A stretch of 59,708 nucleotides of DNA from a virus (taxonomy: Duplodnaviria; Caudoviricetes): the IMG/VR virus record IMGVR_UViG_3300014656_000031, positions 1-59,708 of that record, one strand, 5' to 3'. The position numbers and the translations under genes are program-made. Shown one piece after another: positions 1,910 through 12,330 of the stretch (within the stretch, counting starts at the first letter, position 1; each line of letters opens with the position of its first letter). The notes below the pieces were generated by a model. That model was given only the letters and a program-made list of their open reading frames with translations. It was not told the origin of the DNA and ran no database searches.

Positions 1910-1985
1910 GCCGTGATAGCACAATTGGTACTGCACGTCTTTCGTAAAGACAAGATTGTCGATTCGAATTCGGCTCACGGCTCCA
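1910..1985 (+). tRNA. tRNA-Thr(CGT)
   Basis: acceptor GCCGTGA/TCACGGC, loop TT-CGT-AA, TTCGAAT T-loop, encoded CCA. Confidence 0.9.
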
Positions 1986-1987
1986 AT

Positions 1988-2061
1988 ACGGGATTAACAT
2001 AATGGAAGTGTGACAGGCCTACACCCTGTTAGTGGGGGTTCAATTCCCTCATCCCGTACCA
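1988..2061 (+). tRNA. tRNA-Val(TAC)
   Basis: acceptor ACGGGAT/ATCCCGT, stem ACAGG/CCTGT, loop CC-TAC-AC, CCA. Confidence 0.85.
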
Positions 2062-2075
2062 TTTTAGTTTTCAAT

Positions 2076-2150
2076 GCCTCTATAATGTAATGTATAGCAT
2101 AATACGCTTCGAACGTATTAGTGTGGGTTAGATTCCTACTAGAGGCACCA
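2076..2150 (+). tRNA. tRNA-Arg(TCG)
   Basis: acceptor GCCTCTA/TAGAGGC, loop CT-TCG-AA, CCA. Confidence 0.88.
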
Positions 2151-2156
2151 TTTTAT

Positions 2157-2229
2157 GTGTTATTGGTGTTCAACGGCAGCACGTCAGGTTTCCACCCTGA
2201 AGGTAGGGATTCAATTTCCCTATAACACT
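2157..2229 (+). tRNA. tRNA-Gly(TCC), no encoded CCA
   Basis: acceptor GTGTTAT/ATAACAC, stem TCAGG/CCTGA, loop TT-TCC-AC. Confidence 0.85.
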
Positions 2230-2238
2230 CTGTTTAAT

Positions 2239-2313
2239 GTGTCTATGGTGATAATAGTAACACGTCTGATTGCCTATCAGAAGATTCCGGGGCAGTTTCG
2301 GATAGACACTCCA
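2239..2313 (+). tRNA. tRNA-Gly(GCC)
   Basis: acceptor GTGTCTA/TAGACAC, loop TT-GCC-TA, atypical T-loop GGCAGTT, CCA. Confidence 0.82.
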
Positions 2314-2320
2314 TTCTATT

Positions 2321-2397
2321 GCCTCCATCGTCTAACGGCTTAGGATATCTGGTTCTCAACCAGAAGATTGCCAGTTCAAACCTGACTGGAGGCACCA
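2321..2397 (+). tRNA. tRNA-Glu(CTC)
   Basis: acceptor GCCTCCA/TGGAGGC, loop TT-CTC-AA, CCA. Confidence 0.88.
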
Positions 2398-2406
2398 TTT
2401 ATTTTA

Positions 2407-2435
2407 TTGCCTTATTAATTAGTTTCCTATATAAT
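2407..2435 (+). promoter_or_regulatory. sigma70-type early promoter
   Basis: TTGCCT-17 bp-TATAAT. Confidence 0.75.
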
Positions 2436-2462
2436 TTTAAAAAATGAAGGATAATAAAAATT

Positions 2463-2734
2463 ATGCCAAATTCTTTAAATAAACCAATTAATTTCAATGA
2501 TATATTTAGTGAAATGTTTGGTGGGGACAATTCTAAATCAAAAGACAATCCAAAGGAAACTATTATTATTGTAAAAGCAAAGAAATTGATGATTATCTTC
2601 GTTCTAAATATCGTGATAAATTAGTAGTTGGTGTATTAGAACCTGATGGTAGTATTCGTGTTATCAAAAACGATATTTCTGAAACTATGACAACTGATGA
2701 ATTTAAAGAAAAGTACTTTGTGGACCTATTATGA
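2463..2734 (+). pseudogene. FVDLL-tail family gene split by a -1 frameshift
   Basis: frame 0 stops at 2624 (53 aa); -1 frame open 2537-2734 reads EIDDYLRSKY...TTDEFKEKYFVDLL*; join near GTA AAA GCA AAG (2571-2582). Confidence 0.75.
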
Positions 2735-2985
2735 ATTATGCAGTTTTTATAAACAATCACAACATGTGTATTGAAATATGGGCTAAAGATGGTCCAAATG
2801 CATGTAAATTGATTGGTCATAATTATTCCTCAAAGATGTACTGGGACTCTAAAAAACAATCACTGGAAGATTGGGTTGATCATATTGAAAAAAATTTTCC
2901 AGGTCGGGATAAAAATGGATTTAAATGTACACGTTATAATACTTTAGAGGAAGTGATGGAACAACACTTTGTGGACCTGTTATAA
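2731..2985 (+). CDS. FVDLL-tail family small protein
   Basis: MNYAVF...YNTLEEVMEQHFVDLL*. Confidence 0.8.
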   Translation: MNYAVFINNHNMCIEIWAKDGPNACKLIGHNYSSKMYWDSKKQSLEDWVDHIEKNFPGRDKNGFKCTRYNTLEEVMEQHFVDLL

Positions 2986-3432
2986 GTTTCTTATAATCCA
3001 TATTTTATATGTTCTTCCAACTGGAATATCATGTAGTCTAGTGTGAATATAGGTTACCTCAACATTATGTTCCTTGAAAAAATTATAAATGTTCCAAGCT
3101 TGCTTCTTTAAGTGATCTTTACTGAATACTTCAATATCACCACTATTATCTCTTTTATCAATACCTAATCTTACAGCGCCATTCTTGAGTGCTAAAGTGT
3201 GTAGCATAAAATTTGGTGAATCTTTTTCACTTTCAGATAATCCGAACTGATCTAAATGATCTCTGATATATTGATCGTGCTTTGCATATTGAACAGGAAT
3301 AATTTGTCCAAACGGAAGCAACCAATAAACAATTTGAGGGGCTGCTCGATATATAGCCTGTTTATACAGATCATTGAATTTGTTAGATATTTCTTCAATA
3401 ATCAATTTGAATAATTTAGTAAAAGAATCCAT
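2980..3432 (-). CDS. hypothetical, putative internal head protein (W-x-x-P-x-G...H...G-x-x-R family)
   Basis: ATAAATA late motif just upstream; N-term MDSFTKLFKLIIEE; paralogous to 4421 and 16363 ORFs. Confidence 0.7.
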   Translation of the reverse strand: MDSFTKLFKLIIEEISNKFNDLYKQAIYRAAPQIVYWLLPFGQIIPVQYAKHDQYIRDHLDQFGLSESEKDSPNFMLHTLALKNGAVRLGIDKRDNSGDIEVFSKDHLKKQAWNIYNFFKEHNVEVTYIHTRLHDIPVGRTYKIWIIRNL

Positions 3433-3484
3433 ATTAATATTTATGCTTTTATGCCGCAGGTTTCGGTAAACACAGGAGTTTAAA

Positions 3485-3560
3485 CGCTAGGAAGTCAAAC
3501 GGCTGAGACTGCTCCCTCATAAGGAGAAAACAGCAAGTTCAATTCTTGCCCTAGCGACCA
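3485..3560 (+). tRNA. tRNA-Met(CAT), elongator or Ile2 type
   Basis: acceptor CGCTAGG/CCTAGCG fully paired, loop CT-CAT-AA, CCA. Confidence 0.85.
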
Positions 3561-3565
3561 ATTTT

Positions 3566-3640
3566 GTCTCTGTAGTGAAATGGATATCACAATAGGCTAC
3601 GAACCTGTAATTCCAGATTCGAATTCTGGCAGAGACGCCA
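3566..3640 (+). tRNA. tRNA-Arg(ACG)
   Basis: acceptor GTCTCTG/CAGAGAC, loop CT-ACG-AA, CCA. Confidence 0.9.
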
Positions 3641-3643
3641 TTT

Positions 3644-3698
3644 AGCCACTCCAACATCTTGACCCGTATGTTGGGGAAGAGGCTTAAATAAACGGGTC
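3644..3698 (+). ncRNA. candidate H-type pseudoknot RNA between tRNAs
   Basis: stem CTCCAACAT/ATGTTGGGG; loop GACCCGT (3661-3667) complementary to ACGGGTC (3692-3698). Confidence 0.55.
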
Positions 3699-3703
3699 CT
3701 TTT

Positions 3704-3778
3704 GCTCTTATGATGTAATGGATAGCATAAAAGTTTCCTGAACTTTTTGTACAGGTTCAAATCCTGTTTGGAGCACCA
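3704..3778 (+). tRNA. tRNA-Arg(CCT)
   Basis: stem AAAGT/ACTTT, loop TT-CCT-GA, GGTTCAAATCC T-arm, CCA. Confidence 0.85.
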
Positions 3779-3781
3779 ATC

Positions 3782-3855
3782 GCCCGTTTCGTTTAAAAGT
3801 AGGACGAGTCCTTGGTGAGGATTAAATTTGGGAGCGTTACCCAAAACGGGCTCCA
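3782..3855 (+). tRNA. tRNA-Thr(GGT)
   Basis: acceptor GCCCGTT/AACGGGC, loop TT-GGT-GA, atypical T-loop AGCGTTA, CCA. Confidence 0.8.
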
Positions 3856-3903
3856 TTTTAGATAAATATTTTAAAAGATATCATTTTAGATAAATATTTA
3901 AAA
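3855..3903 (+). repeat. tandem duplication of a late-promoter motif
   Basis: two near-identical copies of TTTTAGATAAATATTT(T)AAAA. Confidence 0.6.
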
Positions 3904-4094
3904 TGACATCTTTTAAAGAATATTTTGAAACACCAAACGATTTATGGATTGATTCAATACCAGAAGAACCCTATGATCCGTGTCCTTGTGGTTGTGGAAT
4001 GAAATGGAGATTCGTAGTTAAAGGTGGGGAAAAAGTTATTGCAGATCATGAAAAAAGATTTATTGAAAAAATGAAGGAACAATCACATGAATAA
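3903..4094 (+). CDS. small protein with SEC-C-like motif
   Basis: DPCPCGCGMKW; N-term MTSFKEYFE. Confidence 0.7.
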   Translation: MTSFKEYFETPNDLWIDSIPEEPYDPCPCGCGMKWRFVVKGGEKVIADHEKRFIEKMKEQSHE

Positions 4095-4434
4095 AGATGA
4101 CAAACTAATATTCGAATCATATTTTAATAAAAACAATGGTATTCCTGTGCACGTGGAATTAAACAAAATTTTACAAATTTTACAAAATTCAAAAACTGAA
4201 AGAGAAGCTAATGAATCAATGTTAACTGTGATACACGATGGCAAGCTTAGCGAAGATGCATTTTTAGAATATTTAGAAATAACACAAGTGACTGCTTATG
4301 ATGCCATGAAGGAGGCACTTACAGAAGAAGAAGAACCTAGTTTAGAAAATGAACCAGAGAAAATGTCTACTGTGGATAAAGAAATAGACCAATTATCTAT
4401 ACGTTCGTTTGAGAAAAATAATGCCAACATTTAA
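4087..4434 (+). CDS. acidic hypothetical, putative internal head protein
   Basis: N-term DDKLIFESY shared with 7528, 51917 and 52809 ORFs. Confidence 0.7.
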   Translation: MNKDDKLIFESYFNKNNGIPVHVELNKILQILQNSKTEREANESMLTVIHDGKLSEDAFLEYLEITQVTAYDAMKEALTEEEEPSLENEPEKMSTVDKEIDQLSIRSFEKNNANI

Positions 4435-4825
4435 GGACTATTTTAAAATGCATTTTGGCAAAATTGACAGAGCAGGATATTTTTGGATTATGCCAAACGG
4501 CGAAGTTATTGATGTGTCAGCTTCTACACATATGAATTATGCTAGGGCACACCCAGAAAAATTTAGAGTTCCAGCAAGCTATTTTGACGGAACAGAACCT
4601 CAACTTACAGCATTATTAAAATCTGGAGCTATTCGAGTAGGTACTCTTGATTATAAACTGTCTGCAGATGTTTCTTATTATACTTTCACTGATTTAAAAA
4701 GACAAGCTAGAAAAATATACGAACTTTTTTCCCATACTAAATTTGAAAAAATTCATTTACATAGATTTGAAGAACCTGTCAAAAATCTTGAAATTTCACT
4801 TGACAGGATTAAAGAATTATATTAA
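4421..4825 (+). CDS. hypothetical, W-x-x-P-x-G...H...G-x-x-R family
   Basis: MPTFKDYFK start; FWIMPNGEVI..H..LLKSGAIRVG. Confidence 0.7.
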   Translation: MPTFKDYFKMHFGKIDRAGYFWIMPNGEVIDVSASTHMNYARAHPEKFRVPASYFDGTEPQLTALLKSGAIRVGTLDYKLSADVSYYTFTDLKRQARKIYELFSHTKFEKIHLHRFEEPVKNLEISLDRIKELY

Positions 4826-4838
4826 TATATATAAAGAT

Positions 4839-4913
4839 AGCGGGGTACACTGGAGAGTCCAGGGATGGTCTCATAAGCCATCGACGCTGATTGCAAAACA
4901 GCTCCCGCCACCA
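4839..4913 (+). tRNA. atypical initiator-like tRNA-Met(CAT)
   Basis: A1:C72 mismatch, GCGGGG/TCCCGC acceptor, loop CT-CAT-AA, degenerate T-arm, CCA. Confidence 0.75.
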
Positions 4914-4939
4914 ATTTCAAAAGGATATTAAACAACTAT

Positions 4940-5017
4940 TGGCGCATAGAGTAATGGTAGCTCCCCAGACTTTGAATCTGGATGGTTGTGTTGGTTCAAC
5001 TCCAACTGCGCCAACCA
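4940..5017 (+). tRNA. tRNA-Gln(TTG)
   Basis: acceptor TGGCGCA/TGCGCCA, loop CT-TTG-AA, CCA. Confidence 0.88.
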
Positions 5018-5035
5018 TTTCCTTTTAATTTTAAT

Positions 5036-5124
5036 GCCAACGTCGGTTAGTGGCTATACCAGCAGATTTGTAATCTGCCATGTCGAAAGACATACCGGGA
5101 GTTCAAGTCTCTCCGTTGGCTCCA
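5036..5124 (+). tRNA. tRNA-Thr(TGT) with long variable arm
   Basis: acceptor GCCAACG/CGTTGGC + T73, loop TT-TGT-AA, V-arm ATGTC-GAAA-GACAT, CCA. Confidence 0.8.
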
Positions 5125-5136
5125 TTTAGTTTCTTC

Positions 5137-5165
5137 TTGACTTTCTCAAAGGTTTCATATATAAT
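5137..5165 (+). promoter_or_regulatory. sigma70-type early promoter
   Basis: TTGACT-17 bp-TATAAT. Confidence 0.8.
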
Positions 5166-5209
5166 TTAATTATAATAATTAAAAGCCATTACATGTTTGT
5201 AGGTTTACT

Positions 5210-5569
5210 ATGAAAATCTGTGTTTTATCACAAGAGCAACTTAAAACTTTTATTGAGATAAGAGATGATCATAAATATGGAAAATCATTTGAATATACAC
5301 ATTTTGCAGGACCTTTTCCACCAATAAACAACACTCCTTCTTGTTCTACTACACCAGAAAATATAAAAATGATGGAATTATATTATAAAGTTAAAAATGC
5401 AGATTTGGTTGTTGTTGATTGGGATGGAAAGAATTTTAGAGTTTTTAAAGATTGGGGTATATGTACAGTAGTAGAAGATACACGAGGACGGGTTCCGAAT
5501 GTGTGGAACCATGGAGATTTGATTAAAAAAGAAGAACTAGTAGAACAATATTTTGAAGAATTTTTATGA
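5210..5569 (+). CDS. FVDLL-tail family protein (variant)
   Basis: ends KKEELVEQYFEEFL*. Confidence 0.75.
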   Translation: MKICVLSQEQLKTFIEIRDDHKYGKSFEYTHFAGPFPPINNTPSCSTTPENIKMMELYYKVKNADLVVVDWDGKNFRVFKDWGICTVVEDTRGRVPNVWNHGDLIKKEELVEQYFEEFL

Positions 5570-6102
5570 AAAAAACTAAAGATATAACTAAGTACAACAT
5601 TAAATGGCAAATTTTACGGGCTAAAATTAAAGGCCCTGGTTATTCACTAAATGAGAAACTAACTGCTGTAGAAAAATATTTCAGAGAAGAACAGACCATA
5701 GATGCTTATGAAAGAGTATTAAACTTCTTAGAAGGTCTACAAAAAGGATATATAGGCAAAAATCCAAAGGCAGCAGAAATCGTAGAAAGCGAAATCAGTG
5801 AATGGCGACATTTTGATTCCACTAGAATGAAAAAAGAATCATCTATAATTCCTACCACAGATGAAATATTAGAATATTCATTTGGTGAAAGATTTCTTCT
5901 TTGGAAAGACTTATTTAAACGCAATCAAAAATGGTTAGAAAAAGGATATAACCAAAAAGAATTAAACAATTTCATGGATTTGTTATATAAAGCCTTTCAA
6001 GATAACAAAGAAGACGTGGGAGAAAATTATTCCTACAAAAAATTACAACAACTTCGAAAAAGTGCAGAATCTATAGAAAATACACATAAATTTTTCTTTT
6101 AA
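5566..6102 (+). CDS. hypothetical protein
   Basis: 178-aa ORF, ATGA-coupled. Confidence 0.75.
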   Translation: MKKTKDITKYNIKWQILRAKIKGPGYSLNEKLTAVEKYFREEQTIDAYERVLNFLEGLQKGYIGKNPKAAEIVESEISEWRHFDSTRMKKESSIIPTTDEILEYSFGERFLLWKDLFKRNQKWLEKGYNQKELNNFMDLLYKAFQDNKEDVGENYSYKKLQQLRKSAESIENTHKFFF

Positions 6103-6109
6103 TTAATCA

Positions 6110-6138
6110 TTGCCTTATAATAAATTTTATGGTAATAT
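6110..6138 (+). promoter_or_regulatory. sigma70-type promoter for the ncRNA
   Basis: TTGCCT-17 bp-TAATAT with TG extension. Confidence 0.6.
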
Positions 6139-6174
6139 ATTAAAAGATAAGTAAACGTTCTTTAAAAATAAAAT

Positions 6175-6460
6175 AACAGTGACTGAATAAGAGGTAGCCA
6201 GCCTCTAAGGTGTTAGCGACGATGAAGAATCTAGCTAGCTAGTAGGCCTGTGAAGCGTAAACCTGAAAAAGCGAGAGTTGGTCAACTCTTAGCTTCGTAA
6301 GAACGGGACAAATCGTAATATAAATCATTATGATGGCTGTATCCTGTTGAAGGTAAACAATCCTTCCATTCGTTAAGCGTTTGTCTGATCAACAACGTGA
6401 ATGTGGGTGAATGAACGTGTACAGAACTGAATTTATGGGTAGTCATGAATCCCATCTATT
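6175..6460 (+). ncRNA. large structured ncRNA candidate (ROOL/GOLLD-like context, class unassigned)
   Basis: ORF-free, GC-richer than flanks, at least six hairpins, long-range GTGACT/AGTCAT pairing, own promoter and terminator, within a tRNA cluster. Confidence 0.7.
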
Positions 6461-6468
6461 ATTTTTTT

Positions 6469-6502
6469 ACCCAGGATAATTAAACTTTATCCTGGGTTTT
6501 TT
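6469..6502 (+). terminator. rho-independent terminator
   Basis: ACCCAGGATAA/TTATCCTGGGT stem followed by T-run. Confidence 0.85.
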
Positions 6503-6509
6503 GTTTAAT

Positions 6510-6593
6510 GCCCTCGTAGCCGACCCGAGCTTCTAACTCGCGGAACCGTAATTGGAGCTGAAATTGCAGGTTCGAATCCTGCTGAGGGCGCCA
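6510..6593 (+). tRNA. rearranged tRNA-Arg(TCT)-like gene lacking a normal D-arm
   Basis: acceptor GCCCTCG/TGAGGGC+GCCA, perfect T-arm GCAGG-TTCGAAT-CCTGC, loop CT-TCT-AA, only 8 nt between acceptor and anticodon stem. Confidence 0.7.
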
Positions 6594-6602
6594 TTGTTTT
6601 CC

Positions 6603-6630
6603 TTGTCTTCTCCCTTGGTTCATATATAAT
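6603..6630 (+). promoter_or_regulatory. sigma70-type early promoter
   Basis: TTGTCT-16 bp-TATAAT, ATG at 6637. Confidence 0.6.
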
Positions 6631-6636
6631 TATAAT

Positions 6637-7281
6637 ATGAAAAACTTAAAATTCTATGTACAGCAACATTCGACAAGAATATCTCCTGGAAATTATCAAC
6701 TAGGTACAAAAATTCAAATACCCTATAGAGACTTTTGTGGGTATATTAAAACCTCTGCAAAATTAATGGGGTCTGATTGGATAAAACAAATTACGCAAAC
6801 TGAATTGCAAATACAACAAGTTATTAAGCGATGGTGTAATGCTTATGTTTCTACAGAAATTAAAGGGCAGCATATTCCTGTGATTGATTGGGATGGGGCA
6901 TTACACGATAAAAACCTCCCAGTATTAAAACATTTAGATGAAAATAATATTGGATATGTAATTTTTCACAGTACAACTGATTTAAGATACTGGATATTTA
7001 TTGACCAATTAGGAACTCATACACAATGCATTAAACTTATGGGCGATTGCCGAAATAAATACTCTGCTGGAGATCCATCCTATATCCATTATCAATCTCA
7101 AACTAAAAATATCGTAGTTAGAGCCTACCCCAAATTTATGGATATCCCTTCTCTTTTCATGTCCAGCGATCCCACAAAATACACCAAAAATTTCAAATTA
7201 TGGATAGACAGTTTTAATCAGTATTGGAAAGAACCACATATTCAAGAAGTAGTAGATCATTTCTTTGTGGAAAGCTTATGA
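6637..7281 (+). CDS. hypothetical, possible primase-polymerase-like fold, with FVDLL-type tail
   Basis: PVIDWD (DxD) and YVIFHST motifs; ends QEVVDHFFVESL*. Confidence 0.6.
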   Translation: MKNLKFYVQQHSTRISPGNYQLGTKIQIPYRDFCGYIKTSAKLMGSDWIKQITQTELQIQQVIKRWCNAYVSTEIKGQHIPVIDWDGALHDKNLPVLKHLDENNIGYVIFHSTTDLRYWIFIDQLGTHTQCIKLMGDCRNKYSAGDPSYIHYQSQTKNIVVRAYPKFMDIPSLFMSSDPTKYTKNFKLWIDSFNQYWKEPHIQEVVDHFFVESL

Positions 7282-7505
7282 AATTTCTCTTTATGCAATT
7301 TAAACATGCGCCAGAGATTGTTTATATAGCTAAAGCAGATACTCTAGACAGTCCTGCTACATATATACATTGTCCTGCCGGTATGGATAATTATCGTAAT
7401 ATAACAATTAAAAGTGAAATGCGCATAGACTCTTCATCATGGATCTATAAACTATATGACTCTTTAGAAGAATTAATGGAAGCTCATCTAGTCGATCTTT
7501 TATAA
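7278..7505 (+). CDS. FVDLL-tail family small protein
   Basis: MKFLF...YDSLEELMEAHLVDLL*. Confidence 0.8.
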   Translation: MKFLFMQFKHAPEIVYIAKADTLDSPATYIHCPAGMDNYRNITIKSEMRIDSSSWIYKLYDSLEELMEAHLVDLL

Positions 7506-7527
7506 CATAAAATGATAAATATTTAAT

Positions 7528-9111
7528 ATGAATACAGAAACTAAGCTGATTTATGAAGCGTATCAAACTATTTATGAATCTTGGTGGGACGATGTAGAAC
7601 AAGAAGGTCCTGAAAAAGATGTAAAAGCAGATGCAGAAAAAATAATTGCTTCAGAAAACGAAGAAGAAATATCAGCTATTGCACAAAAAGCTGCACATGA
7701 AATTCCTCCAGAACAGACAGAAGAAACTGCGGATAAAGAATGGGAAATCTCTGCCAGGTTTATGCCGTACTTGCAAGAAAAAATAAACAAGCTAAACAGA
7801 AAATCAGCAAAATTAGGCACTCCTCCAATTACTCTTACTAAAACCGGTGAGGAAATTCGTAAAATTACAAGTGAAGTAAATGGTGAAGAATTACTAGTAC
7901 AAATCATTAAAATTAAACTGCAAGGATCTGCTCCAGTATTGGACGGTTGGCAATTTGTGGCAACTATTGAACATATACCAGGCGGCAATATGATTTATAA
8001 AGTTCCTGGTTTAGATCTAAAAACTCCACTTACTACAATTTTTAAAAATCAACCACCTACTTGTGATTGGTGTAAAATTAATAGAAGCCGTTTAGAAACC
8101 TTTCTAATTCGCAAATTGGTTAATGGTGTTCCTGTAGAAGGAAAATGTGTAGGGCGAACATGTCTAAAGGATTTCTTGGGTGGCAATGATCCACAAAAGT
8201 ATTTAGCCTATGCAAAAAGTTTAACAGACATTATTGGAATGCTAGCTGAATTTGAAGCGGCTGGAGCAGAAAGCCCTCATCCCCGAGCTGCACATGCAGA
8301 TCAATATGTTGAGGCTTTTGGATTTCTATGTAGAGTAGCAACAAACATTCGTAATTTTGGTTGGATAAGTGCAGCTAAGGCTCGTGAGCAAGGAAGATCT
8401 TCTACAACTTCTGATGCCCTGATAGATATTAGCAATGCACAAAAAGGCAATCAACCTAAAAAATCAATTGAACAAGAAGACAAAGAACTAGCCCAAAAAA
8501 CTATAGATTGGGCTCAGAATGGTCTTCCTAAAAAAATTGAAGAAATTACAAATAAAATTGCTGCAGGAACTGCTTCTTCCTTCGAACAACAAAGCGTAGA
8601 TTATTTAAACAATTTACACACAGCATTACAATCAAATTATTTAACTTGGAAGCAAGCACGAATTGCAGGGTCTGCTATTATAGCATATAAAAAAGAAACA
8701 GAATGGAAAGATAAACAAAAAGAACAAGCATCTAAATCCAATGAATGGGTGGGACAATTAGGTGGTAAAATTAGTAAATTACACGTAACCCTAAAAGGGA
8801 AAAACACTTTTCAAACTGATTATGGTATGTCTACTTTGGTGAGATTTGAAGATGACGTAGGAAATAAGCTAGCCTGGTTTGCTACAAATACAGATTCCTT
8901 AGGAGATTGGGATATCGGTACCTCCATGAATATTGATGGTACCGTTAAAGCCCATCAATTCTATCCACGAGGATCACAGAATAAACAAACTCTTCTAACA
9001 CGTGTTAAAAATTCTGATTTCATTAAGCCTCGAAAGGCACGACAACCAAAATTTGTTGTTCCTCCTGTTCCACCGAAAACAACAGGGCTAGATGCTTCTC
9101 CAGGATGGTAA
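7528..9111 (+). CDS. conserved phage protein, Zn-binding centre and probable C-terminal OB-fold
   Basis: CDWC...CVGRTCLKDFLG; C-term WVG...RFEDDVGNKLAWF...GTVKAH...QTLLTRVK; N-term KLIYEAY. Confidence 0.7.
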   Translation: MNTETKLIYEAYQTIYESWWDDVEQEGPEKDVKADAEKIIASENEEEISAIAQKAAHEIPPEQTEETADKEWEISARFMPYLQEKINKLNRKSAKLGTPPITLTKTGEEIRKITSEVNGEELLVQIIKIKLQGSAPVLDGWQFVATIEHIPGGNMIYKVPGLDLKTPLTTIFKNQPPTCDWCKINRSRLETFLIRKLVNGVPVEGKCVGRTCLKDFLGGNDPQKYLAYAKSLTDIIGMLAEFEAAGAESPHPRAAHADQYVEAFGFLCRVATNIRNFGWISAAKAREQGRSSTTSDALIDISNAQKGNQPKKSIEQEDKELAQKTIDWAQNGLPKKIEEITNKIAAGTASSFEQQSVDYLNNLHTALQSNYLTWKQARIAGSAIIAYKKETEWKDKQKEQASKSNEWVGQLGGKISKLHVTLKGKNTFQTDYGMSTLVRFEDDVGNKLAWFATNTDSLGDWDIGTSMNIDGTVKAHQFYPRGSQNKQTLLTRVKNSDFIKPRKARQPKFVVPPVPPKTTGLDASPGW

Positions 9112-9112
9112 T

Positions 9113-9580
9113 ATGAAATTTAAATCTATATTTTTAGAAGCTTTAGATTCGATTGAAATTAAAGCAATCCCATCTAAAAACAGACCATCTGATGTAGATA
9201 TTATTGGTGCATATCAAAATAATGAATTAATTGGAAAAGCCTCTATTAATAAAACAACAGATCCATACCATTTTTTGCTATCTTATATTCACGTAAATCC
9301 TGAATTTAGAAATCAAGGAATAGCAAAAAAACTAGTAGAATATATACAGTCTAAATATACATCTAGACCAATTATACTTCAACCAGAATCTTTTGGATTT
9401 AAATTCAAAGGAAAAACAAACGAAGAACTTCGAGCTATGTATTCACATTTAGGTTTTAAAACTTTAGTCAATCAACCAAATTATATGATTTGGAGACCTA
9501 CAGTAAGTGAATCGGCTATTCAACAATCTCCAGCTTTACCATCAGCACAAACTCATATGTTAGCACCACCAAAAATTTAA
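9113..9580 (+). CDS. GNAT family acetyltransferase
   Basis: IHVNPEFRNQGIAKKLV acetyl-CoA motif, YSHLGF. Confidence 0.85.
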   Translation: MKFKSIFLEALDSIEIKAIPSKNRPSDVDIIGAYQNNELIGKASINKTTDPYHFLLSYIHVNPEFRNQGIAKKLVEYIQSKYTSRPIILQPESFGFKFKGKTNEELRAMYSHLGFKTLVNQPNYMIWRPTVSESAIQQSPALPSAQTHMLAPPKI

Positions 9581-9651
9581 ATAATTTTCTTGATTTTTTC
9601 TATATTTATAATATAATTAACTTAGTGGGGATGGCATACAACAGCAACTTC

Positions 9652-10587
9652 ATGAAATTTCTAACATATGCATTGTTAATATTATTAACTGTTCAGTCAC
9701 CTGCAAATATATTAACTCTTGAATTAGAAAACGATATATTCTTCGATAGTGATAAATTTTATACGCATGGAACTAAGATTTGTTATTACTTCACCTATCT
9801 GCAAACTTTTGATAAATACTTTGAATTTCTTTTCAAAAAAGATAGAGCCCATAACATTGGATTAACTATTGGGCAGAATATGTATACTCCTTCAGATATC
9901 AGCATATCTACTCCTATTACGGACGACAGACCTTATGCTGGCTGGCTCTATGGTGGAATTATATTTAAATCTATTGGATCTAATGATACTAGTTTTATTG
10001 AAATAGATGTTGGTACAACTGGCCCAGATTCCTATGCAGAAGAAGTTCAAAAACAAGTACATGAGTGGACAGGCAGTACAACTCCAATGGGTTGGAGTAA
10101 TCAGATTAAAAATGTAGTTGGCATAAATGTAATCTTTAAAGAAAAATGGAAACTGTGGGATGCATATTATAAGGACCTTGGTGTACAATTTAATCCATTT
10201 GTAAATGCTTCTCTAGGAAATATTTGTACATATTTTGGAGGAGGTGTAGAACTTCGAACAGGATATAAATTACCTCCAGACCTGTTTATAGTTTCTCCTA
10301 TAGAACCCACTGTTATTGAAATTAATCCTAAAGAATGGTTCTTCTTTTTATTTGCATCAATTGGAGGCAAATATGTTGCTCGAAATATTTTATTAGATGC
10401 AGAATTATGTCCTATTCCATATTATTTAGAAAAAGAAGATTGGATAGGCGAATTCAAATATGGAGCCGCAACAGGATTAAAATACATTCGAATTGAACTA
10501 GCTAACATTATTCGTACTAAAGAATTCACCATTCAAAATCAGGATTATATAGAATATACTTCCTTGGCGGCATCAATTGTTTTTTAG
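9652..10587 (+). CDS. lpxR: LpxR-family (DUF2219) lipid A deacylase, outer-membrane beta-barrel
   Basis: signal peptide, ENDIFFDSDKFYTHG, GQNMYTP, DRPYAGWLY, C-terminal Phe. Confidence 0.8.
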   Translation: MKFLTYALLILLTVQSPANILTLELENDIFFDSDKFYTHGTKICYYFTYLQTFDKYFEFLFKKDRAHNIGLTIGQNMYTPSDISISTPITDDRPYAGWLYGGIIFKSIGSNDTSFIEIDVGTTGPDSYAEEVQKQVHEWTGSTTPMGWSNQIKNVVGINVIFKEKWKLWDAYYKDLGVQFNPFVNASLGNICTYFGGGVELRTGYKLPPDLFIVSPIEPTVIEINPKEWFFFLFASIGGKYVARNILLDAELCPIPYYLEKEDWIGEFKYGAATGLKYIRIELANIIRTKEFTIQNQDYIEYTSLAASIVF

Positions 10588-10595
10588 GAGAAACT

Positions 10596-10784
10596 ATGGC
10601 AAACTATATTGAAATCAAAGCAGAATATTGGTCTGATCGAACTAAAAATAAAGATAAGCCTATTGCATTAACATTTAAGGAAGGTGGAAGAAATTCTTTT
10701 AGTGATGTCAAATGGTTATCTGTTAACGAATGTAAAAAACTAAAAGAATCCTTGCAGAAAATATTGGATGATATAAAATTATAA
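10596..10784 (+). CDS. hypothetical protein
   Basis: AGGAG RBS, 62 aa. Confidence 0.7.
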   Translation: MANYIEIKAEYWSDRTKNKDKPIALTFKEGGRNSFSDVKWLSVNECKKLKESLQKILDDIKL

Positions 10785-10849
10785 TATAAAAGAAATGAAA
10801 TTTCGATTACAAAATTATCCGGAACTATTAAAAAAAGAAAGACATTAAA

Positions 10850-11056
10850 ATGAAACTTGTATGTCCAAATAATCCTAAACATAAAAGGTTTAGTACTTAT
10901 GCTGCTATATCACGAGAATGGATAGTAGATGAAGATGGGAAATTTATTAGAGAAGGAAAAAATAGCGATATAATAAACTATCCGGATGAACACGATTGTT
11001 TTTGGTGTGTAGAATGTGCTACAGAAGCAGATAAAATAAAGGCAGATGAAAAATGA
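10850..11056 (+). CDS. small zinc-ribbon protein
   Basis: CP...H and WCVECA motifs. Confidence 0.65.
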   Translation: MKLVCPNNPKHKRFSTYAAISREWIVDEDGKFIREGKNSDIINYPDEHDCFWCVECATEADKIKADEK

Positions 11057-11598
11057 TTACAACAAAACAAAATGGTAATAAGTTAACAGTTACAATTGAA
11101 CATCAATGTGATTCTTGTGAAGGAACAGGACTATATCAAGGTATGGCTGAAAGAAACGGAGCTGGTGTAGTCTGTTCTACTTGTAAGGGAACAGGTAAAT
11201 TTGTTTCTGTTGAAACTTTTACGAAATTTGAAGGTCGTAAAAACAAAAAAGGTGTTGAACGAGTTTATCAAACAGCAGGGGGCTATGGAATCACATCTAA
11301 AGATTTTACAGATAAAAATGGCAAACTTTTTAAATTTTCAGAAGCAGGATGCTCCTATAAAGATTGGAAGAATGATGTAATTCCAAAACCTATAGAAGAT
11401 CTGCATTGTCCGTATATGCATAGTAATCAAAACATGCAAAACTCTAAACACAAAGCCTATAAGATGTATAAAACTGTATGTAGAAATGGGTTACATTGGG
11501 GCTTGATTACCGAATGTAAGAATTTTAAATGTAAAGAGAAGTGTTGGAAGAAATACTATGAATTAGTTGGTGATAATTATAATGAAATCAAAGCCTAA
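11053..11598 (+). CDS. DnaJ-type zinc-finger protein
   Basis: CDSCEGTG and CSTCKGTG repeats. Confidence 0.75.
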   Translation: MITTKQNGNKLTVTIEHQCDSCEGTGLYQGMAERNGAGVVCSTCKGTGKFVSVETFTKFEGRKNKKGVERVYQTAGGYGITSKDFTDKNGKLFKFSEAGCSYKDWKNDVIPKPIEDLHCPYMHSNQNMQNSKHKAYKMYKTVCRNGLHWGLITECKNFKCKEKCWKKYYELVGDNYNEIKA

Positions 11599-11731
11599 TA
11601 AGTGTTACATTAAAAAATGTAAATGGGCTCCTTCTATAGTTTATTTAAATAGAGAACTATGTGACTATCATTGGGAAATGTTATGTAAATTAGATACTGC
11701 TGACATGAAAAGAAAATTGAACTTAAAATGA
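11582..11731 (+). CDS. 49-aa Cys/His protein (below ORF-track cutoff)
   Basis: MKSKPNKCYIKKC...LCDYHW...; fills gap, ATGA-coupled to HNH gene. Confidence 0.6.
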   Translation: MKSKPNKCYIKKCKWAPSIVYLNRELCDYHWEMLCKLDTADMKRKLNLK

Positions 11732-12330
11732 ATGTAAAGAAGCCAGATGTACTTGTACTTAATCGTGTTTTTGTACCTATACACATTGTAGACCATCAAA
11801 CTGCAATGACTCTAATTTATACTGAAAAATGCCGACCTTTAGATAGAGATTATTTGGCATATACATTTAATGATTGGTTAAATTTTTCTTCTCAAGAAAC
11901 TAATAATTATCCAAAATTACACACTATAAATTATCCTATTGCTATACCAGAAATTATAGTATCTACTACCTTTGATAAACTCCCACAGAGGCAAGTAAAA
12001 TATTCTAGAACCAATGTAATGGCCCGAGACAAATATCGTTGCGGTTATTGTGGTAAACAGTTTAATAGAAAGGATCTTACTATTGATCATATTCATCCAA
12101 GATGCAAAGGTGGTAAGACTACATGGGATAATGTAATCTCTTGTTGTTTCCCTTGCAATCAAAAGAAAGACAACAAAACTATGGCAGAAGCTGGAATGAA
12201 GCTAAGATTTTTACCTAAAGCACCAAAATGGATGTCTCCATTAACTCATATAAGTATGAAGGAACATCCTTGTAAAAGTTGGTCTCATTTTATGTATAAG
12301 GTCTCTACGGAAATAGAGAATGAAGACTAA
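11728..12330 (+). CDS. HNH endonuclease (McrA-like)
   Basis: RDKYRCGYCG...LTIDHIHPRCKGGKTTWDNVISCCFPCNQKK. Confidence 0.9.
   Translation: MNVKKPDVLVLNRVFVPIHIVDHQTAMTLIYTEKCRPLDRDYLAYTFNDWLNFSSQETNNYPKLHTINYPIAIPEIIVSTTFDKLPQRQVKYSRTNVMARDKYRCGYCGKQFNRKDLTIDHIHPRCKGGKTTWDNVISCCFPCNQKKDNKTMAEAGMKLRFLPKAPKWMSPLTHISMKEHPCKSWSHFMYKVSTEIENED

Follow-up and report, generated by a model that had tools for sequence, protein, structure and literature searches.

The tRNA gene clusters of phages T4 (species 1 and 2) and T5 encode small stable non-tRNA RNAs of unknown function that are presumably released by tRNA-processing enzymes. ROOL (Rfam family RF03087) is an RNA of about 500-600 nt, and GOLLD is family RF01998. 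A preprint describes many GOLLD members of more than 800 nt, and describes ROOL and GOLLD as lying near tRNA islands and forming RNA-only multimeric cages (10.1101/2024.12.08.627333). T4-like cyanophages and marine bacteria carry a further RNA, manA (RF01745), for the most part in the 5' UTRs of metabolic genes; it was classed as a riboswitch candidate (PMC2864571). According to an unreviewed cryo-EM preprint on RNA refolded in vitro, manA assembles into 60-mers, decamers and octamers, with kissing loops and a GNRA-receptor contact holding the copies together (10.64898/2026.07.01.735769).

We analyzed a stretch of 59,708 nt of viral DNA (the window), in which a first-pass annotation had proposed an independently transcribed structured noncoding RNA near tRNA genes, with either a class of its own or a compact ROOL or GOLLD relative in mind. 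The pointer to tRNA genes was apt: the RNA, like ROOL and GOLLD, adjoins phage tRNA genes. No Rfam family matched it at its curated threshold, as would be the case for a new class, and we found no relation to ROOL or GOLLD.

The RNA gene and its fold

The window contains a structured RNA gene of about 300 nt at 6166-6468 on the plus strand. The covariance model R1 matched 6162-6475 (+) with 243 bits (E 3e-76), its sole match in the window; this match and the covariation among 28 sequences bear out the annotated structured RNA. G+C was 0.34-0.42 across the RNA and 0.25-0.33 in the adjoining coding DNA. The annotation had seen no ORF here, and the only two that overlap are short and on the minus strand (57 and 29 aa). 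None of the five ORFs nearest the RNA matched a Pfam family. In PHROG a 527-aa ORF alone had a match, of unknown function, and the four nearest flanking ORFs had none. There was no megablast match between window positions 4000-12000 and the phage collection.

The nested fold was supported by covariation. We used a 28-sequence alignment (A2) to measure covariation and a larger alignment of 113 rows, both made with MAFFT. The 85 nested pairs were 91.0% paired in A2, compared with 70.8% after shuffling, and the observed value was reached by 0 of 500 shuffles. The covariation score was 0.577, in comparison with 0.197 for shuffles and 0.10-0.14 when the partners were slid. Alignment of homologs with a covariation check, which the annotation had suggested, thus found compensatory changes (changes on both sides) at 66 of the 85 pairs. 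Folding the window's sequence by itself was weakly informative (z = -1.74), yet the MFE structure forms helices 6 and 7, and it supplied the register of hairpin 5 in the window. The fold comprises two multi-helix junctions and is closed by a helix, P1. The features are listed below, with the percentage paired and the covarying pairs taken from A2.

6110-6138 (+): putative promoter of the first-pass annotation; TTGCCT, 17-nt spacer, TGgTAATAT
6169-6179 (+): 5' strand of closing helix P1, TAAAATAACAG; pairs with 6456-6466
6180-6211 (+): manA-like 5' module; junction TGACTGAATA, helices 2 and 3, then TAAGGTG
6182-6184 with 6209-6211 (+): helix 2; 100% paired, 3 of 3 pairs covary
6190-6195 with 6201-6206 (+): helix 3 (AGAGG/CCTCT); 96% paired, double changes at 4 of 6 pairs; 5-nt loop AGCCA, 6196-6200
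6197-6200 with 6334-6337 (+): long-range pairing PK1, GCCA (hairpin 3 loop) with TGGC; from covariation
6213-6216 with 6235-6238 (+): helix 4, enclosing hairpin 5; 80% paired
6221-6223 with 6229-6231 (+): hairpin 5, GAT with ATC; 94% paired
6255-6258 with 6415-6418 (+): helix 6, long-range, 5' strand GCGT; 95% paired, 3 covarying pairs
6261-6265 with 6404-6408 (+): helix 7, long-range, 5' strand ACCTG; 99% paired, 3 covarying pairs
6271-6293 (+): hairpin 8 (AGAGTT/AACTCT); 95% paired
6296-6303 (+): invariant CGTAAGAA; its last two bases overlap hairpin 10
6302-6310 with 6338-6348 (+): hairpin 10 (AACGGGA/TCCTGTT); 99% paired, 5 covarying pairs; its interior holds CAAATCG and the strand ATGA-TGGC (6330-6337)
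6330-6333 with 6443-6446 (+): long-range pairing PK2, ATGA with TCAT (hairpin 16 loop); from covariation
6349-6353 with 6362-6366 (+): hairpin 12 (GAAGG/CCTTC); 100% paired, 4 of 5 pairs covary
6367-6371 with 6399-6403 (+): helix 13 (CATTC/GAATG); 100% paired, 5 of 5 pairs covary
6377-6383 with 6393-6398 (+): hairpin 15, inside helix 13; 83% paired, 7 of 7 pairs covary
6404-6418 (+): second GUG...GAAUAA-type junction, TGGGTGAATGAACGT, with the 3' strands of helices 7 and 6
6435-6455 (+): terminal hairpin 16 (ATGGG/CCCAT); 99% paired, 5 of 5 pairs covary; 11-nt loop TAGTCATGAAT
6456-6466 (+): 3' strand of P1, CTATTATTTTT; pairs with 6169-6179
6469-6497 (+): intrinsic terminator; 11-pair stem, 7-nt loop, then TTTTTT, with the T run to 6503

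Six of the eight nested helices in the first-pass annotation (helices 3, 8, 10, 12, 13 and 16) were confirmed by covariation on A2. The other two did not hold up across the family: GAAGC/GCTTC was 62% paired, no better than shuffles, and the extended ATCGTAAT/ATTATGAT likewise reached 62%, with no variation at its first four pairs and with a 3' strand that takes part in the covarying long-range pairings instead. Helices 2, 4, 5, 6, 7 and 15, both long-range pairings, and the A/U-rich closing helix (6169-6179/6456-6466) had not been described in that annotation.

P1 had compensatory changes at 11 of 11 pairs. Just 69% of its cells were paired in A2 because MAFFT misaligns the ends; in individual sequences the P1 duplexes form from quite different sequences. 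In the window, 9 of the 11 positions pair when read by eye, all as A-U, with two mismatches. A reading by eye also placed the 3' strand of helix 6 in the window one base off the A2 register. The loop of hairpin 5 is a GNRA tetraloop in the family (GAAA in 94, GCAA in 7, GUGA in 3 and GUAA in 2 of 113 rows), and the window departs from this with the pentaloop GAAGA. The hairpin 16 loop is UAGUCAGGAAU in 59 of 113 rows. The invariant unpaired nucleotides are CGUAAGAA, CAAAUCG, CUGUA and GAAUAA. One group of relatives (the L001 subgroup) has a variable insertion of up to ~40 nt in the region 6349-6403.

PK1 and PK2 clamp the loops of hairpins 3 and 16 onto one central strand (6330-6337). PK1 was 97.3% paired in A2 with covariation at 4 of 4 pairs, and the observed values were reached by 0 of 500 shuffles. 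In the 113-row alignment its four pairs formed in 112/113, 112/113, 113/113 and 102/113 rows, and three of the four had at least 10-20 state changes on the tree. PK2 was 100% paired in A2, with one compensatory change, and its pairs formed in 94/110, 112/112, 113/113 and 112/113 of the rows in the larger alignment. The covariation of both fits pairing within one molecule as well as between molecules. The pseudoknot that had been annotated, GTGACT 6179-6184 with AGTCAT 6441-6446, was not upheld: it was 63.7% paired versus 63.2% in shuffles, with individual pairs ranging from 38/112 to 104/112 (113 sequences), and the same loop pairs instead with ATGA 6330-6333. A kissing interaction of the hairpin 3 loop with the hairpin 8 apex (GCCA with UGGC) was considered and rejected on inspection, as the loop varies and the apex does not follow; the true partner of GCCA is 6334-6337.

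Similarity to manA

The sole Rfam family that recurred on the RNA was manA, with matches of 17-29 bits in nine of the 17 members searched. The window scored 26.4 bits (E 1.2e-4) over the full manA model, less than half of the curated gathering cut-off of 55.2 bits. Among the other members, eight scored 17.3-28.7 bits and eight had no match. A true manA RNA, that of P-SSM2, scored 181.6 bits with the same model. In the reciprocal search, R1 recovered seven of ten true manA RNAs from cyanophages and missed three; the matches scored 19-29 bits (E 7e-9 to 1e-5) and covered the full span of the model. The likeness to manA had not been noticed in the first-pass annotation.

The Rfam comparison that the annotation had suggested gave no match to ROOL, GOLLD, tmRNA, RNase P or group I introns, leaving sub-threshold manA as the only recurrent family. 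ROOL and GOLLD matched neither at the gathering threshold nor at E up to 10 (searched at 5900-6800). No tmRNA was found by ARAGORN or by Rfam at E up to 10, and RNase P, RNase MRP, group I and II introns and small-ribozyme families had no match at E up to 10. A likeness to RNase P (GGGUGAA, GUAAGA) was considered and dropped, there being no match to an RNase P model.

The family and manA share an outer set of modules. Both occur in phages, and both have a closing helix that joins the 5' and 3' ends, then GUGACUGAAUAA, a 6-bp hairpin with a 5-nt loop, and UAAGGUG. The manA model aligns to the 5' module of the RNA, with the same geometry in P-SSM2 and nine other manA RNAs. In both, the terminal hairpin has 5 bp, and its 11-nt loop, of nearly identical sequence (UAGUCAGGAAU in the family, UAUACAGGAAU in manA), pairs with an upstream CUG-strand. 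Nine of ten manA sequences pair CUGUA with UACAG, and the remaining one has the compensated pair GAGUA/UACUC. Among most relatives the second junction reads GUGACUGAAUAA, which explains why manA alignments sometimes fall on the 3' half of the RNA.

The two RNAs differ in size and in their cores. Family members are ~300-360 nt long, whereas manA is ~190 nt. The central domain takes up ~205 model positions in the family and ~73 nt in manA (73-76 nt when R1 was aligned to manA), and the manA model aligned to the window with insertions of 70, 76 and 47 nt. The central multi-stem domain of manA is absent from the RNA, and the central 200 nt of the RNA are without a manA counterpart. The invariant core motifs, the second GUG...GAAUAA junction and PK1 are the family's own; we found no counterpart of PK1 when manA sequences were inspected by eye in an alignment (A4). 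Based on the reciprocal model matches and the common modules, we infer that the RNA is a distant, enlarged relative of manA that shares its outer shell and has a larger core of another kind, although the likeness may be a convergent reuse of modules.

Distribution and tRNA-array setting

The RNA belongs to a previously undescribed family that is widespread in megaphages. We found at least 173 homologous loci with nhmmer, 123-124 of them unique, in metagenomes of gut, groundwater and other origin. Each of the 15 Prevotella Lak megaphage records matched, as did LR756501 and LR756503, and R1 found exactly one copy in each of the five megaphage genomes searched (332-735 kb); one of the carriers is a 735-kb phage. 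In a pattern scan of metagenomes, 116 of the 117 matches listed were family members. Three loose sequence patterns returned mostly unrelated DNA, and for one of them 7 of 114 new loci were family members. The pattern TGTGGGTGAATN{20,50}TATGGGTAGTCA had no matches in viral contigs. We found no published description of this RNA family, and the main texts of two Lak phage papers do not contain the words non-coding, ncRNA, structured or riboswitch.

The usual genomic setting is an array of tRNAs on the strand of the RNA, and not a 5' UTR. A tRNA gene was within 2 kb at 75 of the 123 unique loci, with 304 of these 307 tRNAs on the strand of the RNA, and was within 100 nt at 28 of the 123. The other 48 had no tRNA within 2 kb; many of those loci are short, and the L001 subgroup is truly without tRNAs within 1.3-6.8 kb. 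In Lak-B1 and two further loci (L017 and L040), tRNA-Thr(UGU) is directly upstream of the RNA and tRNA-Met(CAU) is 11-17 nt downstream. Counting Lak-A1 and L067 with these three, a tRNA lies 10-17 nt downstream of the RNA in five loci, and among relatives the spacers to a same-strand tRNA go down to 6-17 nt. In contrast to most manA RNAs, the RNA is not in the 5' UTR of a metabolic gene. Among the loci examined we saw no conserved neighboring protein gene, and by a crude ORF call the next downstream ORF was on the opposite strand in 14 of the 28 loci that have one. We conclude that Lak-type megaphages and other jumbo phages have one copy of this gene per genome, in most cases within same-strand tRNA arrays.

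Independent transcription, as annotated, is at best local to the window. The strong terminator is there (6469-6497), and the 3' strand of P1 leads directly into it; it is a feature of this window alone and is not conserved in relatives. The putative promoter at 6110-6138 fared less well: a promoter scan listed no site in 6100-6160 at its threshold, and by eye its hexamers match at 8 of 12 positions, with an upstream TG. It is not a family feature because relatives adjoin tRNAs, and their spacers of just 6-17 nt leave no room for a promoter or terminator of their own. Upstream of the L001 subgroup we saw by eye no convincing promoter of the Bacteroidota or sigma-70 type, and a conserved GTTCTTTGAAAG at that place belongs to an extended closing helix. 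The RNA would be excised from tRNA-array transcripts by the nucleases that mature the adjacent tRNAs; in the window it might alternatively come from its own transcription unit ending at the terminator. The transcript ends and the stability of the RNA are, like this processing, predictions.

Proposed self-association and comparison with known systems

The apex of hairpin 8 points to self-association of the RNA. The apical tetranucleotide (GGTC, 6280-6283 in the window) is self-complementary in 100% of cells in A2 and in 108 of 112 rows of the larger alignment, whereas 2000 shuffles averaged 59 such rows and never exceeded 73. Its variants are GGCC (54 of 112 rows), GUAC (24), GGCU (9), GGUC (8), GAUC (7) and GCGC (6), that is, four Watson-Crick palindromes and two wobble variants; the window's GGUC is unlike most of the family in needing two G-U pairs. 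The adjacent apex columns (154 and 155) covary, with at least 30 state changes on the tree. Because adjacent bases cannot pair within one loop, this covariation suggests pairing between RNA molecules. The palindromic loop is the sole sequence evidence for self-association, and its basis is MAFFT alignments of related sequences. The palindrome may instead act at the level of DNA, for example as a protein site.

We think that the RNA is probably a stable, trans-acting, self-assembling, enlarged manA relative from megaphage tRNA arrays. It would act in trans as a folded particle and would not be a riboswitch for a downstream gene. Self-association would occur through the symmetric hairpin 8 loop, with PK1, PK2 and the GNRA loop as possible further intermolecular contacts. 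The product would be a dimer or a bigger assembly made of RNA alone, comparable to what has been reported for manA, ROOL and GOLLD. Our leading guess is that the role of the assembly is tied to phage tRNAs or translation.

Other explanations account for parts of these data. The many invariant unpaired nucleotides, the conservation as a single copy in megaphages and the location among translation-related genes would also suit a scaffold or decoy, with the conserved loops and junctions as binding sites for a protein of the phage or its host, such as a translation factor, a tRNA enzyme or a defense nuclease. We consider this unlikely: there is no conserved neighboring protein gene among the loci, the ORFs flanking the RNA in the window are without Pfam matches and the four nearest without PHROG matches, and the palindromic covariation of the hairpin 8 apex is better explained by RNA-RNA pairing. 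Protein binding is compatible with a self-assembling RNA and does not exclude it. A cis-regulator like a riboswitch, in which metabolite binding controls the terminator at 6469-6497 and readthrough into a tRNA-like gene and the ORF at 6637, would make sense of the direct passage of P1 into the terminator in the window, of the highly conserved junction nucleotides, and of the classification of manA as a riboswitch candidate (PMC2864571). It appears quite improbable, given that the terminator is not conserved, that relatives have tRNAs 6-17 nt away and lack a conserved downstream expression platform, and that in half of the loci with a downstream ORF (14 of 28) this ORF runs on the other strand. 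Moreover, a reading of the window by eye revealed no convincing anti-terminator, just a 5-bp A-U pairing, and the canonical manA of P-TIM68 itself precedes an opposite-strand gene.

A catalytic role in the tRNA array, whether as a self-cleaving ribozyme or through an RNase P-like contribution to maturation of the adjacent tRNAs, would fit an RNA embedded between same-strand tRNAs with a complex pseudoknotted fold and invariant junction bases. This is very doubtful, with no RNase P, RNase MRP, intron or small-ribozyme match at E up to 10 and a closing helix that joins both ends, unlike what a self-cleaving element freeing its neighbors would need; in addition, the accessible parts of two papers on manA, the nearest relative, report no catalysis (PMC2864571, 10.64898/2026.07.01.735769). 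Membership in ROOL or GOLLD, as a compact form, is suggested by the same genomic habit (phages and tRNA islands) and is extremely improbable for an RNA of ~300 nt that is far shorter, does not match those models even at E up to 10, and has its recurrent similarity to manA instead.

Returning to the self-assembling manA relative, we put forward tentatively a more specific form of it, in which a near-universal single-copy gene of Lak-type megaphages encodes an enlarged manA-class RNA that is freed from tRNA-array transcripts and assembles with itself into an RNA-only multimer or cage. The contacts would be the symmetric kissing loop, intermolecular loop-strand pairing and GNRA contacts. If this is true, three structurally distinct classes of cage-forming phage RNA (ROOL, GOLLD and the manA type) converge on tRNA islands, which would suggest that all of them act on phage tRNAs or on the translation apparatus while infection proceeds. 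In any case, the RNA is a new fixed point in the biology of megaphages, whose genomes otherwise encode mostly hypothetical proteins, and a handy marker for finding them (15 of 15 Lak records and relatives of 332-735 kb).

The proposed self-association resembles that of known dimerization sites. The HIV-1 DIS is a palindromic kissing-loop dimerization site, with a self-complementary center at the apex of a hairpin. As in the DIS, the apex of hairpin 8 stays self-complementary while the identity of its bases changes; the setting is unrelated, and the palindrome here is 4-6 nt, with dimerization predicted from sequence. Palindromic-loop covariation in this way predicts self-association from sequence alone, and an RNA of 300 nt suits cryo-EM.

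Among phage RNAs, the stable RNAs of T4 and T5 likewise lie in a tRNA cluster and are much smaller than the RNA described here. ROOL and GOLLD are large structured phage RNAs that are often beside tRNA islands, as this RNA is, and also occur in prophages. They are 2-3 times larger and without a match in sequence or structure, and multimerization of this RNA is presumed from its loops. The cages of manA, as reported in the preprint, use kissing loops and a GNRA contact; the family has GNRA and palindromic loops through which it would assemble. If the kinship holds, the manA fold extends beyond the 5' UTRs of marine cyanophages to the tRNA arrays of gut and groundwater megaphages, an occurrence that argues against the old reading of manA as a riboswitch. 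It would also tie manA, with its recently reported cages, to ROOL and GOLLD, whose habit of residing at tRNA islands is found in this family as well.

A conserved pseudoknotted fold

The RNA gene (window 6166-6468, +) lies in DNA with little coding capacity. The longest ORF in window 6100-6600 is 57 aa and all ORFs there are on the minus strand; the first-pass annotation had noted no ORF in the RNA and had correctly placed a terminator after it. The G+C content of the RNA is 0.34-0.42, compared to 0.25-0.33 in adjoining coding DNA. R1, a covariance model of the family whose E-values are rough by design, matched the window once (6162-6475, 243 bits), and ARAGORN and Rfam at curated thresholds found nothing in the window beyond ten tRNAs.

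Features of the window
1910-5124 (+), ten tRNA genes in three groups, all upstream of the RNA
5036-5124 (+), tRNA-Thr(UGU), the directly upstream neighbour of the RNA in relatives
6197-6200 (GCCA, hairpin-3 loop) with 6334-6337 (TGGC) (+), long-range pairing PK1, from covariation
6255-6258 with 6415-6418 (+), helix 6, with a one-base shift required in the window
6330-6333 (ATGA) with 6443-6446 (TCAT, hairpin-16 loop) (+), long-range pairing PK2, from pairing and one compensated change
6469-6497 (+), the single intrinsic terminator found by a terminator scan

Homologues were found well beyond the window. A blastn search of a phage collection matched part of the RNA in an uncultured phage of 735 kb, where inspection showed the homologue to be full-length, with clear compensatory changes. 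Further loci came from pattern scans of viral contigs, species-representative genomes and metagenomes, screened with nhmmer profiles of our own alignments. The family comprises at least 173 loci (at least 123-124 unique), with at least 113 distinct full-length sequences.

We determined a secondary structure of 85 pairs in 16 helices from A2, a MAFFT alignment of 28 mutually related sequences, by adding a closing helix to the RNAalifold structure. In this alignment, 91.0% of cells were paired, compared to 70.8% in shuffles (0 of 500 reached the observed value) and 36-42% with partners slid. The covariation score was 0.577, versus 0.197 in shuffles and 0.10-0.14 with partners slid, and both sides changed in 66 of the 85 pairs. 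This was the homologue and covariation check proposed for the locus, and we regard it as virtually certain that these sequences are a real structured-RNA family. The closing helix, P1, is rich in A and U, and MAFFT aligned it poorly (69% of cells paired); double changes occurred at 11 of 11 pairs, and the duplexes of individual sequences differ widely in sequence.

The fold has two junctions. From the one closed by P1 emerge helix 2, bearing hairpin 3, helix 4, bearing hairpin 5, the long-range helices 6 and 7, and the terminal hairpin 16; from the one closed by helix 7 emerge hairpins 8, 10 and 12 as well as helix 13, bearing hairpin 15. The hairpin-5 loop is GNRA in 106 of 113 sequences (GAAA 94, GCAA 7, GUGA 3, GUAA 2); the window, with GAAGA, is an exception. 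Six of the eight nested helices drawn from the window alone were recovered (AGAGG/CCTCT, AGAGTT/AACTCT, AACGGGA/TCCTGTT, GAAGG/CCTTC, CATTC/GAATG and ATGGG/CCCAT). Neither GAAGC/GCTTC nor the eight-pair ATCGTAAT/ATTATGAT was retained: each was 62% paired, equal to or below shuffles.

The conserved fold is pseudoknotted. The terminal loop does pair over a long range, as first proposed, but with a different partner: 5' GTGACT with the loop AGTCAT was 63.7% paired, versus 63.2% in shuffles. Our own scan for covarying antiparallel runs found PK1 and PK2. PK1 was 97.3% paired on A2, with four of four pairs covarying. Across 113 sequences its pairs formed in 112, 112, 113 and 102, using CG, AU, UA and GC types, and three of the four had at least 10-20 state changes on a tree made without PK1 columns. 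PK2 has three near-invariant pairs and one compensated change; its fourth pair is CG in 78 sequences, AU in 14, GC in 1 and GU in 1, with mismatches in 16 of 110. From these partner sites, the loops of hairpins 3 and 16 are predicted to dock next to each other on a single central strand.

One copy per genome, embedded in same-strand tRNA arrays

A single copy was found by R1 in each of the five genomes searched. These were the Prevotella megaphages Lak-A1 and Lak-B1, the 735-kb phage, and two genomes from IMG/VR, 554 and 332 kb long and both rated complete by CheckV. All 15 Prevotella Lak megaphage records were matched using other family members as queries. The window's record is rated 25% complete, and therefore its source genome is probably above 200 kb. 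Among the matches listed, 116 of 117 metagenome pattern matches were family members. In the genome collection 8 of 16 were, all on MAG contigs (labelled Bacteroidales, Alistipes or Muribaculaceae, 6; Bryobacterales, 1; Saccharibacteria, 1), and none of the eight was on a complete isolate chromosome. The pattern CGTAAGAA...CAAATCG...CTGTAT also matches about 107 unrelated loci in prophage-like contigs of isolate genomes (L188-L301, viral contigs; L172, L176 and L182, Edwardsiella and Shigella); many share an identical 45-base match, and this looks like some different conserved element.

The RNA is embedded in tRNA arrays on its own strand. At least one tRNA lies within 2 kb at 75 of 123 unique loci (within 100 nt at 28), and 304 of the 307 tRNAs near the 75 loci are on the strand of the RNA. 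Of the 56 loci flanked by 1 kb or more of sequence on each side, 38 have a tRNA within 2 kb. The order tRNA-Thr(UGU), RNA, tRNA-Met(CAU) recurs in Lak-B1 and two other loci (L017, L040) with spacers of 0-17 nt, and the most frequent downstream tRNA neighbours are Met(CAU) (18 loci) and Ile(UAU) (14 loci). Crude ORF calling placed the nearest downstream ORF on the opposite strand at 14 of 28 loci. The Lak discovery paper describes about 35 tRNAs clustered in certain regions and discusses the tRNA-Thr(UGU) region; a word search of the main texts of that paper and the 2021 Lak paper found no mention of an ncRNA.

A subgroup without nearby tRNAs (L001, L004, L006, L008, L035, L100, L110) has a longer closing helix and, in most members, an extra insertion. 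About 800 nt of ORF-free DNA lies upstream of the RNA in this subgroup (L001, ~600-1390; L008, ~630-1440) and could hold another non-coding element.

In the window, a tRNA-like gene lies directly 3' of the terminator (6510-6594, +), the position held by tRNA-Met(CAU) or tRNA-Ile(UAU) in relatives. It scored 28.6 bits with the Rfam tRNA model (cut-off 29) and was uncalled by ARAGORN. By inspection, the acceptor stem is 7 bp long, a T arm and a terminal CCA are present, and the anticodon loop reads CUUCUAA (UCU); the D region is very short and the variable region spans ~23 nt. Unannotated DNA in Microbacterium phage Pumpernickel (NC_073468, 100465-100534) is ~81% identical to this gene, and changes in the acceptor stem are compensated. 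The four ORFs closest to the RNA had no match in Pfam or PHROGs; the 527-aa ORF at 7528-9111 (+) had a hit to phrog_2319 (E 9e-60; function unknown).

At two other loci, the tRNA arrays that hold the RNA contain sub-threshold matches to the Y-RNA-like YrlA (L005, 7966-8080, 35.4 bits; L056, 3627-3743, 38.9 bits; cut-off 69). Both loci also have sub-threshold tRNA-Sec-like matches (L005, 7555-7636; L056, 3000-3081). Several loci have tRNAs near the RNA whose anticodons are of suppressor type, either CUA (called 'Pyl') or UUA (called 'Stop') (L003, 3716-3788; L088; L181). These fit with stop-codon recoding in its host phages; TAG recoding is described in the Lak discovery paper.

A self-complementary loop in hairpin 8

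At the apex of hairpin 8 lies a tetranucleotide (window 6280-6283, GGTC) that is self-complementary in 108 of 112 sequences; 2000 column shuffles averaged 59 and never exceeded 73.

Self-complementary apices of hairpin 8
GGCC, 54 sequences
GUAC, 24 sequences
GGCU, 9 sequences
GGUC, 8 sequences
GAUC, 7 sequences
GCGC, 6 sequences

On A2, 56 of 56 apex cells pair. The middle, adjacent columns covary (GC 63, UA 24, GU 9, AU 7, CG 6), and on the tree they change state at least 30 times. Because neighbouring bases in one loop cannot pair together, the simplest reading of this covariation is that the apex would form a symmetric loop-loop duplex joining two copies of the RNA.

We suggest that tRNA-maturation nucleases would free the RNA, which would then act in trans and self-associate via hairpin 8. 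We lean slightly toward self-association in vitro; that the RNA builds a larger cage is a tentative idea that we consider rather doubtful. Our leading guess is that its biological role is tied to phage tRNAs or translation.

Relation to manA and to cage-forming RNAs

The first-pass annotation had suggested a new class or a compact relative of ROOL or GOLLD, large ncRNAs that often adjoin phage tRNA genes. Kinship with ROOL or GOLLD was not borne out: a permissive Rfam scan of window 5900-6800 gave no match to either, or to tmRNA, RNase P or introns, and the RNA is not captured at curated thresholds. The sole meaningful match was manA (RF01745; 26.4 bits, E 1.2e-4), with the full model (1-192) aligned over 6158-6465 and insertions of 70, 76 and 47 nt. 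It was also the only Rfam family recurring on the RNA, in 9 of 17 members tested (17.3-28.7 bits), with no match for L001, L004, L006, L008, L056, L038, L078 or L085. The window's score is far under the 55.2-bit cut-off, a true manA in P-SSM2 scores 181.6 bits, and by Rfam's criterion the RNA is outside manA.

In the reverse direction, R1 detected 7 of ten cyanophage manA RNAs (19-29 bits, E 7e-9 to 1e-5), aligning the 5' module and terminal hairpin and skipping the middle. The family and manA share the closing helix and the junction GUGACUGAAUAA. Both also have a 5-nt loop on a 6-bp hairpin, the sequence UAAGGUG, and a terminal hairpin of 5 bp whose 11-nt loop (UAGUCAGGAAU in the family, UAUACAGGAAU in manA) pairs with a CUG-strand upstream. 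In manA this loop pairing is CUGUA/UACAG in 9 of 10 sequences and a compensated GAGUA/UACUC in the tenth. The middle, however, is unlike in size and sequence. We think that the RNA is probably a distant, enlarged manA relative.

The genomic settings also differ. In T4-like cyanophages, canonical manA precedes metabolic genes or follows gp23, whereas the family RNA mostly has tRNA neighbours. The gene following manA in P-TIM68 (L309; NC_028955, 152815-152989) is on the opposite strand, and in several cyanophages manA is just past the major head gene; therefore, even classical manA can lie outside a 5' UTR.

ROOL and GOLLD, found near tRNA islands, form cages that might enclose phage tRNAs (preprint 10.1101/2024.12.08.627333). 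Refolded in vitro, manA builds 60-mers, decamers and octamers out of pentamers, which a GNRA-receptor contact and the kissing loops L5-L7', L8-L9' and L3-L8' hold together (preprint 10.64898/2026.07.01.735769). By analogy, PK1 and PK2 may be counterparts of the L3-L8' and L8-L9' contacts of manA and, if so, may form between molecules.
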